NCBI GenBank assembly: GCA_045541255.1
Contig: JAZQIU010000051.1
Coordinates: 1-61,293, forward strand
Direction: 5' to 3'
DNA from: Bacilli bacterium
GTDB lineage: Bacteria; Bacillota_I; Bacilli_A; RF39; UBA660
Length of the DNA: 61,293 nucleotides
In this document: in pieces, positions 26,675-32,217 of the stretch
Layout: the number at the start of each line of letters is the position of its first letter
Numbering within the stretch: position 1 is the first letter of the stretch
Notes under the pieces: generated by a model
What the model was told of the DNA's origin: nothing
What the model saw: only the letters and a program-made list of their open reading frames with translations
Database searches by the model: none
Position numbers and translations under genes: made by a program

Positions 26675-27151
26675 TTATTCTCCCCCAAATAAATTTTCTG
26701 CAATACTAGCAAAATTTTCTTCGTTACTATCAAAGAAATTATTCCATGCACCTTCATCCCATATTTCTAGTCGGTCATTAGCGCCGATTATAACGCAATC
26801 TTTAGTTAAACCGGCGTATTTGACCAATGGGGAGGTAATGCCTACTCGACCAGATTTGTCAAGCACACATTCAGTAGCACCAGACAAAAAGAATCTGGTG
26901 AAATCACGTGAGTCTTTTTTTGTAAATGGTAACGTTCTTAATTTGCTTACTATATTTTCCCATTCGACCAAAGAATATACAAATAAACAGTTCTCAAGAC
27001 CGCGAGTAATAACAAACTTTTCTCCAAGTTCACTTCTAAACTTACTAGGAATAATCAATCTGTTTTTTTCATCAATACTATGATGATACTCACCCATCAA
27101 CATATTATTCCCCACTTTCTTCCACAATGTACCACTGTATACATAAATCAT
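26675..27151 (-). CDS. mraZ: Transcriptional regulator MraZ; start probably 27103
   Basis: GEYHHSIDEKNR, DKSGR and EIWD. Confidence 0.95.
   Translation of the reverse strand: MIYVYSGTLWKKVGNNMLMGEYHHSIDEKNRLIIPSKFRSELGEKFVITRGLENCLFVYSLVEWENIVSKLRTLPFTKKDSRDFTRFFLSGATECVLDKSGRVGITSPLVKYAGLTKDCVIIGANDRLEIWDEGAWNNFFDSNEENFASIAENLFGGE
27111..27136 (-). promoter_or_regulatory. MraZ-binding repeats
   Basis: Three GTGG direct repeats with exact 10-bp period (27112, 27122, 27132) just upstream of the mraZ start. Confidence 0.75.
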
Positions 27152-27230
27152 ACACTAAGTTTTCATAAAATACAATATAAAGATTAAAAATTCAACAAAA
27201 AAAATTTACATTTTACAAGAAAACGTAAAT

Positions 27231-28121
27231 TTAATTTAAAATATAAGTAGTTTCAAATATTCTTTTATCACTTGAATATTCTAAAATAAATTTATTACCT
27301 TTTTTTACAATTATTATTCCTATAGTCCTATCTTGACTTATACTCTTTACATTCTTATCTATATAATTCATATACACTTCTATTTGTCCTATATGTTCTT
27401 TCTTTAGTTCAGTAATTTTTAATTCAATAACAACATAACAATTATACTTAATATTAAAAAATAATAAATCAATATAATTATAAGTATCTCCTATCTTTAC
27501 CTTATATTCACTACCAATAAAAGAAAATCCTTCACCTAATTCTTTCATGAAATTTTCTAAATCTTCTAATATTAATTGTTTTAATATTTTCTCTGTAATA
27601 ATTTCATAATTATTAGTATTTTTTATGATTATAGGATTTTTCACAAAATCATTTACAACTAATTTTTCTTTATTTATTAACTTTAACTTAGTTTTTTCAT
27701 CTAATCTTTTATATTCATTATTTTTTATTCTATCATGCAATTGTCTATAAGATAAATTTTGCTGTAAAGATATATTAATATAATAGTTGATTTCGTTATA
27801 ATCCTTTAACATTAATAACTCTGTATAATGACTCCAAGTCAATTGTGTCGGCATAGCCGACACTTTTTCATTACTAAAAATTTTATAAAACTGCCTCATT
27901 CTAAAAAGTGTTCTTTTATTATATTTTTTCCCTACTTCAACCATTAGCTTAGTACTGTATTTCTCCATTATTGTTTCACCATATTTACTGCCAGCCTCAT
28001 ACAATAACTTCCCCACATTACAATAAGTTTTCAAATCACTTCTATTCTTGCTATAATCTTTTACTTTCTTATATACTTCATTATTTATTAATTCAGTTTT
28101 TATTTCATTATAATAACTCAT
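27231..28121 (-). CDS. yhcG: YhcG/DUF1016 PD-(D/E)XK nuclease-domain protein
   Basis: LTWSHY, ELGEGFSFIG, IDLLFFN and YVVIELK...GQ..Y. Confidence 0.9.
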   Translation of the reverse strand: MSYYNEIKTELINNEVYKKVKDYSKNRSDLKTYCNVGKLLYEAGSKYGETIMEKYSTKLMVEVGKKYNKRTLFRMRQFYKIFSNEKVSAMPTQLTWSHYTELLMLKDYNEINYYINISLQQNLSYRQLHDRIKNNEYKRLDEKTKLKLINKEKLVVNDFVKNPIIIKNTNNYEIITEKILKQLILEDLENFMKELGEGFSFIGSEYKVKIGDTYNYIDLLFFNIKYNCYVVIELKITELKKEHIGQIEVYMNYIDKNVKSISQDRTIGIIIVKKGNKFILEYSSDKRIFETTYILN

Positions 28122-28133
28122 ATAAAACTCCTC

Positions 28134-28151
28134 TCACTATACATATAGTGA
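28134..28151. promoter_or_regulatory. Palindrome abutting the yhcG SD
   Basis: TCACTATA-ca-TATAGTGA; near-identical copy at 17689-17706. Confidence 0.6.
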
Positions 28152-28179
28152 TTTTTTCGGTAATTCCTTTTTATTCAAC

Positions 28180-28500
28180 AAAAAAAGACTGTAATTTATA
28201 CAAATGCCCTTTCGTATTAACTACTTACACATTTATATTTTACAATCTATTTATTTAGGTTTTACCCAAGGAAATATGCTTGTTTCAGGTAGGCATCTCT
28301 CTACCATAGCATTATTATGTTATGAGATAGCCACAAATCTGAAATTAAGGGGCGCAGACTGTTATTGTTGTTCACATTGTTGTTGTTCACGTTGCCATCA
28401 TTGTTAACGTTGAATGCGTTATCGTTACCATTGAAGTTGGCCGGAGAGAGAAGGAATGTAAAAATCTCTCACCAACTCTATGCTAACCCAAATAGCATCA
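28180..28500 (-). ncRNA. Putative stand-alone DGR template RNA (5' hairpins, TR, structured 3' spacer, U-tract)
   Basis: 5' hairpin AUGCUA/UAGCAU; TR; 3' long stem AGAUUGUAA/UUACAGUCU enclosing an AGUA/GAA motif, then a U-run; boundaries approximate. Confidence 0.6.
28349..28451 (-). repeat. DGR template repeat (TR)
   Basis: Non-coding, AAC/AAT-rich copy of the VR (reads LSPANFNGNDNAFNVNNDGNVNNNNVNNNNSLRP); shares both ends with the VR. Confidence 0.92.
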
Positions 28501-28618
28501 TTCCCCAAAATAAAAATATATATAAATTTTTATTTTCATAATTTTAGTAAAGATTTTTTTATCTTTTCACTTTAACTTACACACTATCGTGTATATTAAA
28601 TACTCTTTTTATATTAAT

Positions 28619-28646
28619 AGTCCTGTGGAAAGGTTTCCACAGGACT
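28619..28646. other. Perfect 13-bp inverted repeat (cruciform/hairpin) downstream of the DGR target
   Basis: AGTCCTGTGGAAA-gg-TTTCCACAGGACT. Confidence 0.8.
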
Positions 28647-28674
28647 GTTCTTCTTAGATTTATAGATCATGGAC

Positions 28675-28689
28675 GTAGTCTTCGACTAC
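28675..28689 (-). other. GAA-triloop hairpin just after the target stop codon
   Basis: GTAGTC-GAA-GACTAC on the minus strand. Confidence 0.65.
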
Positions 28690-28699
28690 TTTACCATCC

Positions 28700-30565
28700 T
28701 TATCCAACAACGTATGGACTAGTTTTTGTTCCATTTCCTCCAGTGATTACTGCACTAGATGCTAATGAAACTGCGGGGCGCAGACTGATGTACTCAAGGG
28801 ACACAACGTCGTAGTCGCTCACGCGGCCATTGATGTAAACGCGGAACGCGTAATCGCCGTTGCCATCGAAGTAGGACGGAGAGAGAGACCACCAGTATAA
28901 ATAATTTTTCATTTGATAATTATTTAGTAAGTAATAATTATAATTTGAAGAACCTGCTTTTCCTCCTGCAAATACTACTTCATCTGCTGTTAACGCTCCT
29001 ATATATGATTCAAATGTTTTATCATTCTTTCCATCACATCTTAATGTTGCATTTGCTGTTTCACCTGTTCCATATAATCTCTTAGCAGCTTCATAATAGA
29101 ATGATTTACTATTATACATCAAATCATTTACACTATCAGTTAATAATGCTCCTGTTGATGTATTATATGGATCAGTTGTATTTCCTAAACACCATGTATC
29201 CATTTTTAATTTACTTGTATCTATTCCACTACTTGTTAACCATGTATCAAATTGTGCCTTCATTGATGTACTTGTATTTGTTGGACTATTTAAATAATCT
29301 GCTACGTACTTATTACCTGATGATTGTTGACCACTTGAATTTGTTACTTTTGTTTGATTATATCCATAATGTCCTGTTCCAATATCCCAACTTCCATCTG
29401 ATGAGGCACATGTACTATCTTTATCTTCAAGTACTAATTTGATTGCACCATCACCTTCGATACGTACGATTCTCCAACATTTTCCTGCAAAATCAACATA
29501 GTTGTCTTCTACTTTACCTCTATAATAATATGAAGTTCCTAAATCATCTTGCGTTACACTTAATACATTTTCATAATCTTTAATTTCTTTATTTGACATA
29601 GGAGTTCCATCGCTTGTACAAGCATCAACTTTTCCTACAATATCACACCATGCTCCACAATTATATGAATCCGAAATATATTTTCCTATTACACTATTAC
29701 ATTTTTCTACATCTGTTGACCCTGCTACAGTTGTAGAACTATCATTAGCTTCATCAGCAGTATCACCATATGTTAAGCCATCCCAACCAAAGAATCCATC
29801 AGATGGAGTTAATGTCACAAGCCCAGTCTTACCAGTACCTACTGCACCACTAATATTTTGAGCAACATTAGTTTCTGCAGCTCCTGATAATGTTGTACCA
29901 GTCTTACCTGATATAGCATTATTTATTATGTTATATGCTAAAGTACTTGTATTTGCACTATATGGATTTAATGAAGCTATATCTTTAATATTTACTCTTG
30001 CTGTTAAAGTTTTATTCATATCATTACTTTGATTTCTACCAGTTTCTTTATATGTTACTGTTAAAGTATATGAATGTGTTTTACCTACTTCAATATCATT
30101 TCCTACTAATATTCCACCATTTATTGGGAATACTGATGCACTACTTACACCATCACAAGCAACACCATCACTTGTACATGTTAATGTATATACAAAGTCA
30201 TTGCTTTCAAATGTTGTTGCTGTTCCTGCTGTTTGAGTTACACCATCAACTTCAAGTGTTTCAGCATAAACTACACTAACATTTTCAATTACTACTACAT
30301 AATCAGTTACAGCATTACCTTCATTTTTTACAGTAAAAGTCTTACTATCTATAGTAGTACCTGGCAATATTTTAGTTGTTGGTTCAATAATACCATTACC
30401 ATCATCATATACTAATGCTAAGTTTGCAGTCTTAACAGAAATAGATTTAGAATTTGTATTACCATTAATTCTTGTTAAGAAATATGCATACGTTAATCCA
30501 ACGATAATTAAAAGAACTAAAAATATACCTGTTACACTAACTATTATTTTTTGTCTTCTATTCAT
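28700..30565 (-). CDS. DGR target protein: SipW-class leader, TasA-like domain, C-terminal C-type-lectin-like domain
   Basis: GLTYAYF leader; YYRG...NYV.F....WRIVRI, IGALTADEV..AG, WWSLSP...LRPAVSL and GNGT..SPY motifs; VR at the 3' end. Confidence 0.88.
   Translation of the reverse strand: MNRRQKIIVSVTGIFLVLLIIVGLTYAYFLTRINGNTNSKSISVKTANLALVYDDGNGIIEPTTKILPGTTIDSKTFTVKNEGNAVTDYVVVIENVSVVYAETLEVDGVTQTAGTATTFESNDFVYTLTCTSDGVACDGVSSASVFPINGGILVGNDIEVGKTHSYTLTVTYKETGRNQSNDMNKTLTARVNIKDIASLNPYSANTSTLAYNIINNAISGKTGTTLSGAAETNVAQNISGAVGTGKTGLVTLTPSDGFFGWDGLTYGDTADEANDSSTTVAGSTDVEKCNSVIGKYISDSYNCGAWCDIVGKVDACTSDGTPMSNKEIKDYENVLSVTQDDLGTSYYYRGKVEDNYVDFAGKCWRIVRIEGDGAIKLVLEDKDSTCASSDGSWDIGTGHYGYNQTKVTNSSGQQSSGNKYVADYLNSPTNTSTSMKAQFDTWLTSSGIDTSKLKMDTWCLGNTTDPYNTSTGALLTDSVNDLMYNSKSFYYEAAKRLYGTGETANATLRCDGKNDKTFESYIGALTADEVVFAGGKAGSSNYNYYLLNNYQMKNYLYWWSLSPSYFDGNGDYAFRVYINGRVSDYDVVSLEYISLRPAVSLASSAVITGGNGTKTSPYVVG
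28775..28886 (-). repeat. DGR variable repeat (VR)
   Basis: 112 bp at 57% GC (64/112) inside an AT-rich gene; about 21 of 27 substitutions versus the TR fall at TR adenines. Confidence 0.92.
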
Positions 30566-30740
30566 GAATTTTACCTTCCTTTCAAAACTACAAAAAAATC
30601 ATATAATTACTACCTATTTAACCTAAGACTACTAAATACAAGGAAATAATAAGGTATATAATTTTAAATTTTTTCATAAATAGAATTATTCTCAAGTAGT
30701 CTTTTCTACTCTAAATAAATGATACTATACTTTTTCCCAA

Positions 30741-30773
30741 AATTCAACAAAAATCGACATTTTTTGTTGAATT
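30741..30773. promoter_or_regulatory. Operator-like inverted repeat upstream of the DGR target gene
   Basis: AATTCAACAAAAA-tcgacat-TTTTTGTTGAATT. Confidence 0.5.
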
Positions 30774-30855
30774 GACATTTCTAGTAAATATTGAACCTAA
30801 ACTTCCAGTATTTTTATAAAAATTAAAAAAAGAATGTTTTACATTCTTTTTACAA

Positions 30856-32217
30856 TTATTTATTATTAATATAATTTAAAACTTCTTCTTTATCACTTAA
30901 ATGAATTTTTTTATGCCCTATAATTTGATAATCTTCATGACCTTTACCAAGAATTAATAAAGTATCATTTTCTTTAATCATATCTAATCCATCTTTAATT
31001 GCTTCTCTTCTATCATGTATAACTTTATAGTTATCTTTACTTACGCCTGCCAATATATCTTTCATAATATTTAACTCATCTTCTGTCCTTGGATTATCAT
31101 TTGTAAATATTACAAAATCTGATAATCGAGTAGCAATTTCTCCCATTATTGGTCTCTTCTTCGGATCTCTATCTCCACCACAACCAACTATAGTTATAAC
31201 TTTTCCAATTCTTTTTTCTAATGTAGAACTTATTATTTTTTCTACAGCATCAGGAGTATGAGCATAATCAACTATTGCTTTACCACCATTAACACTTATT
31301 ATTTCGTTTCTTCCATTAGGAGCTTTTATTTTATACGTAACATTAATAATATCTTCTATAGATACTCCTAAATTATTTACAAATGCAAGCGCTGTCATAT
31401 AATTATAAATATTAAATTTATTTAATAAATTTGTTTCAACATTGTATTCTTCATTATTATACACAAAATTTATTTTAGTAGTTAAATTAGTGTATTCATA
31501 ATCTATTACATTGTAATCACTTTTATTAAAACCTAAAGTTTTAAAATTCTTATATTTAAAACTACTACCATATTCATCATCTATATTAGATATCATAACA
31601 CCAGTATCTTTCATATAATTTAATATTAATTTTTTAGCATTCAAATACTTCTCCATAGTTTCATGATAATCTAAATGATCTTCAGTTAAATTAGTAAAAC
31701 CAGCAACATCTAACTCAATACCATTAATTCTTCCTAATGATAACGAATGACTACTTACCTCCATAACTATAACTTTAACATTTTTTTCAATAGATTCTAA
31801 TATTAAATTATAAAGACTTAAAATATCCGGTGTAGTATTAGGTAATTCTCTTATAAATTCACTATTAACATAATAACCTATAGTACCAATATAAGCATTA
31901 TTTATACCTAACTCAGTTAATATTTGACTAGTTAAATATGCAGTAGTTGTCTTACCATTAGTACCAGTTATTCCAATAAATTTAACATCATTAAATTTAC
32001 CAGACACATTATTAACTAAATACTCATTTAAATACTTTTCAGTATCCTCAACAATTATAGTTTCTACGTCATAACTACCGTGAGTAGCAACTATTTTTGT
32101 TGCACCATTTTTTATTGCACTATCTATATAATCATGCCCATCTACAGTATAACCTTTTATAGCTACAAAAGTATCTCCTGGCAAAACACTTCTTGAATCA
32201 GTTTTTATATTCAACAT
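30856..32217 (-). CDS. murE: UDP-MurNAc-tripeptide synthetase MurE
   Basis: GTNGKTT, MEVSSH, DYAHTPD and DNPR (mDAP-type) motifs. Confidence 0.95.
   Translation of the reverse strand: MLNIKTDSRSVLPGDTFVAIKGYTVDGHDYIDSAIKNGATKIVATHGSYDVETIIVEDTEKYLNEYLVNNVSGKFNDVKFIGITGTNGKTTTAYLTSQILTELGINNAYIGTIGYYVNSEFIRELPNTTPDILSLYNLILESIEKNVKVIVMEVSSHSLSLGRINGIELDVAGFTNLTEDHLDYHETMEKYLNAKKLILNYMKDTGVMISNIDDEYGSSFKYKNFKTLGFNKSDYNVIDYEYTNLTTKINFVYNNEEYNVETNLLNKFNIYNYMTALAFVNNLGVSIEDIINVTYKIKAPNGRNEIISVNGGKAIVDYAHTPDAVEKIISSTLEKRIGKVITIVGCGGDRDPKKRPIMGEIATRLSDFVIFTNDNPRTEDELNIMKDILAGVSKDNYKVIHDRREAIKDGLDMIKENDTLLILGKGHEDYQIIGHKKIHLSDKEEVLNYINNK

Follow-up and report, generated by a model that had tools for sequence, protein, structure and literature searches.

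The window analyzed here is the 61,293-nt contig JAZQIU010000051.1 (hereafter C51) of a Bacilli bacterium genome (assembly GCA_045541255.1, hereafter G000), and it carries a variable repeat (VR) and a template repeat (TR) of a diversity-generating retroelement (DGR). It is near-certain that this VR was last templated by TR3, a TR located beside the avd-like and reverse transcriptase (RT) genes on another contig of the genome (C37), rather than by TR_C51, its own neighbour, which lies 325 nt downstream in the window. The window very probably represents the satellite arm (target gene, TR-spacer module and YhcG gene) of a chromosomal DGR cored on C37, with the VR last rewritten from a TR3 complementary DNA (cDNA); by inference, the modules would be usable in trans and their cDNA able to home to either VR of the genome. 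G000 is a metagenome-assembled genome (MAG) of 1.37 Mb in 57 contigs, 92.7% complete, with 4.5% contamination and a GC content of 25%.

Template assignment of the variable repeats

The repeats concerned, with TR1, TR2 and TR3 designating the TRs of C37, are the following.

28775-28885, minus strand: window VR, 111 nt or 37 codons (112 nt counting the shared T at 28886), GC 0.58, inside the 3' end of the open reading frame (ORF) 28700-30565
28757-28786, minus strand: 3' end of the VR resembling an initiation of mutagenic homing (IMH) site, 30 nt, identical in both VRs of G000 by flank comparison
28349-28450, minus strand: TR_C51, 102 nt or 34 codons (103 nt with the shared T), non-coding, A fraction 0.35, AAC-rich, in frame
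C37: TR1, 108 nt, 36 codons
C37: TR2, 108 nt, 36 codons
G000:C37:32702-32812: TR3, 111 nt, 37 codons, non-coding, ~310 nt upstream of the avd-like ORF

Both minus-strand repeats of the window are bounded by the anchors CTCTCTCCG and AGTCTGCGCCCC, a pattern that occurs twice in the window and not once in any of 100 shuffles. The VR exceeds TR_C51 by exactly 9 nt, or three codons. Global alignment of the two reports 19 differences at TR adenines, 6 non-adenine differences (TR_C51 to VR: G>T, T>C, T>C, G>A, C>G and T>C) and 9 gap columns forming three 3-nt blocks. Given this unequal length, the six non-A differences and the nine gap columns, the window VR and TR_C51 fail as a cognate pair. The initial annotation of this DNA had already reported repeats of 112 and 103 nt, a three-codon excess and about six non-adenine differences; its lengths are right and count one further shared T, and the number six proves exact. 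It had proposed two routes to such a VR, either rewriting by a longer paralogous TR or slippage of retrohoming on AAC runs, and had suggested a genome-wide anchor search and an alignment of all VRs to all TRs. Both were run.

The 3' anchor CTGCGCCCC occurs six times in G000, always in TR/VR-like elements, two of them in the window and four on C37. The genome contains four TR modules and two intact VRs, and is not the single-TR genome that the initial annotation had set against its own proposal. Comparisons are given below as A-site differences/non-A differences/gap columns in global alignment. The window VR scores 21/0/0 with the 111-nt TR3, every difference falling at a TR adenine (P=2.7e-12 for all 21 differences falling on the 39 adenines among 111 TR3 positions), 21/5/3 with TR1 and 20/6/9 with TR2. 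The longer paralogous TR of the first route is thus identified, the all-against-all alignment leaving zero non-A differences to TR3. Its changes from TR3 are 9 A>T, 9 A>G and 3 A>C, 20 of the 21 at codon positions 1-2. Similarly, the VR of C37 scores 14/0/0 with TR1 (P=6.9e-8 for 14/14 adenine differences), and 13-14 A-site differences, 4-6 non-A differences and 3-6 gap columns with the remaining three TRs. TR3 has three codons more than TR_C51, and the extra VR codons GGC, GAC and ATC, which the initial annotation had recognized as mutated AAC codons, all oppose AAC codons of TR3.

The competing explanation is a non-canonical mutagenesis, in which the VR was copied from the 102-nt TR_C51 by an RT that slipped three times on AAC runs and misincorporated at six non-A positions. 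There is precedent for it in the available text of Wu et al. 2018 (PMC5758913), which gives TR/VR length differences in ~7% of DGRs (25/372) with 74% of the indels beside AAC, and the gaps observed here do adjoin AAC or AAT codons. However, TR3, from the same genome, needs neither an indel nor a non-A change, and the non-A letters of the VR are those of TR3 itself, for example TCC, GAT, TAC and GAG at codons 4, 7, 12 and 31, respectively. Since all the non-A "errors" and "extra codons" relative to TR_C51 are TR3's own letters, slippage, the second route of the initial annotation with its three codon insertions and six non-A changes, is superfluous. The same reasoning holds for the C37 VR and TR1, and slippage as the origin of the window VR is barely credible.

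In surveys of DGRs, a VR is usually matched with the TR that lies closest or fits best, and residual non-A differences and in-frame indels are read as RT slippage or low fidelity (Wu et al. 2018, PMC5758913). The present locus is a clean counter-example, since its six non-A differences and three codon indels vanish completely when a paralogous TR from a different contig is brought into the comparison. In genomes with several TRs, every VR should therefore be compared with every TR before any non-canonical mutagenesis is invoked.

Regarding the flanks, both VRs continue after the shared AGTCTGCGCCCC with GCAGTTTCATTAGC, TR1-3 with GCAATTTCAGTAAG or GCAATTTCAGTAAT, and TR_C51 with TTAATTTCAGATTT. 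The IMH/IMH* pattern is therefore present as a common GC-rich 12-mer followed by VR-specific or TR-specific letters, and these elements are IMH-like by sequence alone. Four templates face two live recipients in G000, and both recipients share the 5' anchor and an identical 30-nt 3' end; with such identical ends, the VRs would not discriminate among TRs.

TR-spacer modules and the C37 core locus

The four TR modules of G000 align over ~400 nt with a mean column identity of 80%. Each comprises the leader motif GGGAATRRTGCT, the TR, an IMH*-like flank and a ~170-nt spacer ending in a long hairpin and a U run. The corresponding parts of the window module are as follows.

28494-28506, minus strand: leader motif GGGAATRRTGCT, ~45 nt upstream of TR_C51, found in all four TR modules by alignment
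28180-28348, minus strand: spacer RNA after TR_C51, with a conserved structured core, a terminal hairpin at ~28187-28247 and a U run at 28180-28186

RNAalifold analysis of 14 modules from 8 genomes of the genus reports 34 pairs, 16 of them with compensatory changes. Because of these shared parts and this compensatory pairing, each module, that of the window included, looks like a self-contained TR-spacer RNA gene. The TR lengths in G000 (102, 108, 108 and 111 nt) and in a sister species, G010 (105, 108, 111, 114 and 114 nt), are all multiples of 3. Rfam analysis of the window spacer returns a sub-threshold match with RT-14 (28197-28309, minus strand; 27.1 bits against a gathering cut-off of 48.1; E 0.21). 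The three C37 modules give no Rfam match at E<=1, so that the RT-14 match is not reproduced and no family is assigned. Between 28100 and 28750, a promoter scan reports 5 promoter-like sites for 3.6 expected, the site 28570->28541 (minus strand) not being above chance, and a terminator scan reports none, the AT-rich terminal hairpin missing the G+C rule of that scan.

Remnants of a further module were encountered outside these loci. The segment G000:C53:11150-11420 is a relic of a fifth TR module, with a leader-like start and the 3' half of the spacer including its terminal hairpin, the TR itself being gone. Its counterpart on contig C118 of G010 retains the TR, with degenerate anchors.

The C37 locus reads, on one strand, target with VR, hairpin, MutS-like gene, TR1, TR2, YhcG, TR3, avd-like gene, RT, queA and tgt. 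Its coding components other than YhcG are listed below.

Target, 615 aa: carries the 108-nt VR, 53% identical to the window target
MutS-domain-I-like gene (MSL), 123 aa: PF01624 at 3.4e-13, NF003810 MutS at 7.8e-9
Avd-like ORF, 119 aa: overlaps the RT start
G000:C37 30902-32059, minus strand: RT, 386 aa, PF00078 at 1.9e-17, motifs IGNMTSQ and YMDD

DGR-type RTs are characterized by the motif [I/L/V]GxxxSQ in motif 4 and by YxDD. The avd-like ORF matches NF033474 (DivGenRetAVD) weakly (E 0.007, 16.6 bits against a cut-off of 80; protein residues 11-101, model positions 7-95 of 104) and has no Pfam match. A profile search of the window ORFs reports no RT in the window, and PF00078 detects two RTs in G000, on C37 and on contig C6. 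The latter (G000:C6:166490-167302, 354 aa, IGNFTSQ and YMDD) is also of the DGR type, stands beside small phage-like ORFs and probably belongs to a separate, prophage-borne DGR.

Sister species, populations and the possible use of several templates

A DNA search with the TR3 module returns matches in 11 of 41 genomes, G000 counted, and in 8 of the 15 other species of the genus; the exact 12-nt anchor is found in 3 of 16 genus genomes. The MSL gene is conserved in G002, G003, G010, G011 and G014. Among relatives of the same genus, G002, G011 and G014 carry one TR each, arranged as (target-)MSL-TR-avd-RT, and the G012 stretch reads TR-avd-RT. YhcG is present in the multi-TR genomes G000 and G010, and is found neither in the single-TR cassette stretches of G002, G011 and G014 nor in the G012 stretch. 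The array of three TRs plus YhcG is therefore a hallmark of the G000/G010 clade, as is the satellite locus. G010, a bin of 140 contigs from which some TRs may be absent, possesses the same array on its contig C132 and the same satellite locus on C124. The latter adjoins mraZ (MraZ 98% identical), with an orthologous TR of 105 nt at the same mraZ-linked place.

As in G000, the satellite VR of G010 (111 nt) fits the RT-proximal TR (111 nt; 19/2/0) better than the neighbouring 105-nt TR (22/5/6). The array-adjacent VR of G010 (111 nt) scores 21/0/0 with the RT-proximal TR, whereas its positional counterpart in G000 (108 nt) is perfect to TR1, which differs from its own G010 counterpart by 3 mismatches only. 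Array-adjacent VRs fit different TRs in the two species, so the same site holds products of different templates. Three more VRs of G010 are perfect as mosaics of two TRs, the 5' segment following one and the 3' segment another, an arrangement that would fit a 3'-anchored partial conversion.

Sixteen public runs contain part of the window, all of them as assembled contigs (Logan) of animal gut metagenomes, and contigs from 4 of 17 listed runs, X1, X2 and X16 among them, were compared with it. The listed contig pieces of X1 stop at the VR borders, one ending at 28786 and the next starting at 28865, and those of X2 leave 28750-28888, and hence the VR, uncovered; this is the pattern that a hypervariable segment would produce. 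A single VR length variant was found at the locus, in a low-depth X16 contig (470 nt, depth 3.5) that bridges the VR: 65 letters replace 74, giving a 102-nt allele of the length of TR_C51, and the downstream, locus-specific flank shows no difference over 234 nt. In a scan of metagenome contigs for more VR alleles, a locus-specific 27-mer returns no match, and a more general TR/VR 19-mer returns three contigs. Two joints, 28787->28368 in X1 (9 letters between) and 28451->28912 in X2, hint at further VR alleles; they are assignable neither to a locus nor to a template and were not used.

How might TR3 reach the window VR? Each module would give a separate transcript ending at the terminal hairpin, the RT complex would use any module in trans, and adenine-mutagenized cDNA would home to any VR with a shared IMH-like end. 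The choice of template would set the loop length (34, 36, 36 or 37 codons) and the fixed scaffold residues, after which adenine mutagenesis would randomize the AAC codons; partial conversions would yield mosaics. The four modules have common homing ends and a common spacer and both VRs have identical recipient ends, on which ground any module should be usable in trans and any cDNA deliverable to either VR. Interchangeable use of the TR cassettes is plausible but unproven. The initial annotation had suggested that several TRs could cross-serve several targets through shared ends. One instance of this now stands, with TR3 of C37 serving a window VR that has its own neighbouring TR, and support beyond that instance is indirect.

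A broader proposal can be put forward tentatively, as a possibility somewhat less likely than not. It is that of a two-tier diversifier, in which a library of TR-spacer cassettes (34-37 codons in G000 and 35-38 in G010), differing in length and scaffold letters, competes in trans for the same VRs. Full or partial 3'-anchored conversion would swap or mosaic the scaffold, and adenine mutagenesis would randomize it. In that event, some of what has been reported in DGRs as non-canonical mutagenesis (in-frame indels at AAC, non-A changes) would be unrecognized template choice, and the system would resemble silent-cassette antigenic variation run through an RT. For a family of surface lectin-like proteins in gut bacteria with small genomes, the locus hints at a further source of diversity, through the length and the scaffold of the loop. 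Moreover, four trans-acting TR-spacer RNAs would offer a natural system for studying which features of a DGR RNA allow the RT-Avd complex to use it.

Several observations weigh against the C37-cored DGR with modules shared in trans. TR3 and the window VR lie on different contigs of a MAG, and we infer their residence in one cell. The window module departs from the others in having TTA in place of GCA just after the C run and a shorter linker. No assembled VR matches the satellite TR in either G000 or G010, and none matches TR2 in G000, so that the unmatched modules could be idle or could serve unassembled targets. Only one of the 13 VRs of G010 matches any one assembled TR perfectly, and the mosaic fits have extra free parameters and no control. 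The population data consist of assembled contigs and leave ongoing activity and template switching at the locus as possibilities. The X16 allele is a hint known by its length, which does not confirm its template, and it may stem from a diverged strain, given the 18 mismatches across 171 nt of its upstream flank.

A rival reading is a fixed pairing with relics. In that case, TR3, and TR1 for the C37 VR, would be live, TR_C51 and TR2 would be dead leftovers of segmental duplications, and a single remote target of TR3 would exist, with no choice of cassette. TR_C51 and TR2 do lack a matching assembled VR, the satellite VR of G010 likewise follows the RT-proximal TR, TR_C51 departs from the other TRs in its IMH*-like flank and its shorter linker, and true relics occur in the lineage (the C53 spacer remnant of G000 and the degenerate-anchor TR on C118 of G010). 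However, unlike these real relics, TR_C51 has retained exact GC-rich anchors in a 25% GC genome, its frame, AAC richness, leader and spacer structure since before the G000/G010 split. In addition, all nine TRs of the two genomes are in frame, the X16 allele has the 102-nt length, and the VR beside the array, at orthologous positions, draws on different TRs in G000 and G010. A fixed pairing with relics is rather unlikely, though it deserves to be kept in mind.

An artefact of assembly or binning, either the co-binning of two related strains or a VR consensus chimeric across population variants, is far less probable, and we consider it improbable indeed. G000 is a MAG with 4.5% contamination, and VRs vary in populations and break assemblies. 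Nevertheless, a chimeric consensus would not give 21/21 adenine-only differences over the full 111 nt at the right length, and the arrangement in two loci is found again in the independent genome of a different species, G010. Even with two strains, the template of the VR would remain one of the TR3 type rather than the adjacent TR_C51.

The system belongs with the MSL-type DGRs, of which it is a multi-template variant, and its accessory genes are MutS-like and Avd-like. Similar to the DGR of Bordetella phage BPP-1 (mtd VR, TR, avd and brt; PMC5758913, PMC6182149), it exhibits adenine-only differences from TR to VR, a GC-rich 3' homing end in a VR and a TR version, a spacer RNA between the TR and avd/RT, and a C-type-lectin-like fold, predicted here, with the VR at its C-terminus. 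In BPP-1 a single TR serves a single VR in cis; here four TR-spacer modules with TRs of 102-111 nt and two VRs at two loci are found, with a template on another contig. As in the MSL DGRs (Architecture D of Wu et al. 2018, Legionella; Msl in Bacteroides; PMC5758913, PMC11601372), MutS-domain-I-like and Avd-like genes stand by the TR and RT, but the G000/G010 cassette has gained two TR modules and YhcG, plus the satellite target-TR-YhcG locus beside mraZ. In the Treponema denticola DGR and others with remote targets, the RT and TR also serve distant surface proteins with a C-type-lectin fold (PMC5758913, PMC4891356). Those remote targets have no TR of their own, whereas the remote target described here adjoins an apparently intact TR that is not its template.

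Several TRs per RT have been catalogued before, the multi-TR cases being only counted or removed as overlapping predictions in the accessible text of the catalogues. They are counted in that of Yan et al. 2019 (PMC6642488), and nothing on multiple TRs was found in that of Roux et al. 2021 (PMC8144416) or of a Bacteroides preprint (PMC11601372). The corresponding text of Wu et al. 2018 (PMC5758913) deals with remote targets, MSL genes and in-frame TR/VR indels, nearly always beside AAC and read as slippage. In the literature covered, main texts in part and outside supplements and subscription journals, none was found on how a template is chosen among TRs, on length classes of TRs or on a VR written by a TR other than the adjacent one.

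Neisseria pilS/pilE and Borrelia vls provide an analogy, since there an expression site receives copies of silent donor cassettes that have their ends in common, and partial conversion gives mosaics. Unlike pilS/pilE and vls recombination, the transfer here would run through RNA and an error-prone RT, and the resemblance is one of analogy, not of membership.

Target protein, YhcG and genomic surroundings

The genes framing the window module are the following.

28700-30565, minus strand: target gene, 621 aa, with an N-terminal hydrophobic anchor or signal and the VR in the C-terminal 291 aa
28619-28646, minus strand: perfect hairpin past the stop codon of the target gene, read from the sequence; the same element follows the C37 target
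27231-28121, minus strand: YhcG/DUF1016 PDDEXK nuclease gene, directly downstream of the TR module; PF06250 at 2.1e-35, PF17761 at 4.6e-23

The target returns no sequence match in Pfam, NCBIfam or the PDB, and its C-terminal domain alone none in Pfam or the PDB. An AlphaFold2 model of the C-terminal 291 residues (28700-29575), obtained with a 54-sequence alignment, has a pLDDT of 94.3. Compared with 48,161 chains by VIA-align, it reports as best hit the N-terminal part of a Thomasclavelia ramosa IgA peptidase (9qa6, Z 13.7, 201 residues aligned), which is also returned by Foldseek (E 2.3e-5). The next VIA-align hits are the C-terminal domain of Legionella Lcl (8q4e, DUF1566; Z 6.7), a Bacteroides fimbrial protein (4eps, Z 6.4) and Treponema TvpA (2y3c, Z 5.5). 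Below 9qa6, most of the best 50 chains listed are C-type lectin-like domains, many at Z ~5; such chains are not among the matches listed by Foldseek alone. The model thus places the VR in a predicted C-type-lectin-like fold, in line with other known DGR targets; the Z values of these chains are moderate, and being below 8 they indicate a resemblance at the fold level only. The host-facing T. ramosa IgA peptidase, for its part, seems to carry the same predicted lectin-like module.

Besides the two VR-bearing genes, tblastn reports eight further paralogues of the target C-terminal domain in G000, none of which has an intact VR. One of the paralogues in this genome, G000:C30:17566-18369, contains a decayed VR with recognizable anchors and 21-23 non-A differences to the best-aligned TRs, and is probably a former DGR target. 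A homologue search returns 538 proteins at E<=1e-20, the closest being 67% identical, hence no same-species alleles; in an exact-cluster look-up both target proteins are singletons, without alleles. The anchor pattern is matched by 25 of the 122 homologues checked, with loop lengths of 28-33 residues.

YhcG has three paralogues in G000, in the window, on C37 between TR2 and TR3 (G000:C37:32979-33866) and on C6 (G000:C6:4867-5754), 73-74% identical mutually (74% between the window and C37 copies). Two of the three directly follow TR modules, and YhcG may be either a passenger or an accessory gene new to DGRs. The YhcG copy on C124 of G010 appears frameshifted, with three high-scoring segment pairs in different frames. 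In the window, within 26675-32217, the target-TR-YhcG block is inserted between a Mur ligase gene, upstream of the target, and mraZ, and past YhcG follow mraZ, mraW and the division/cell-wall cluster.

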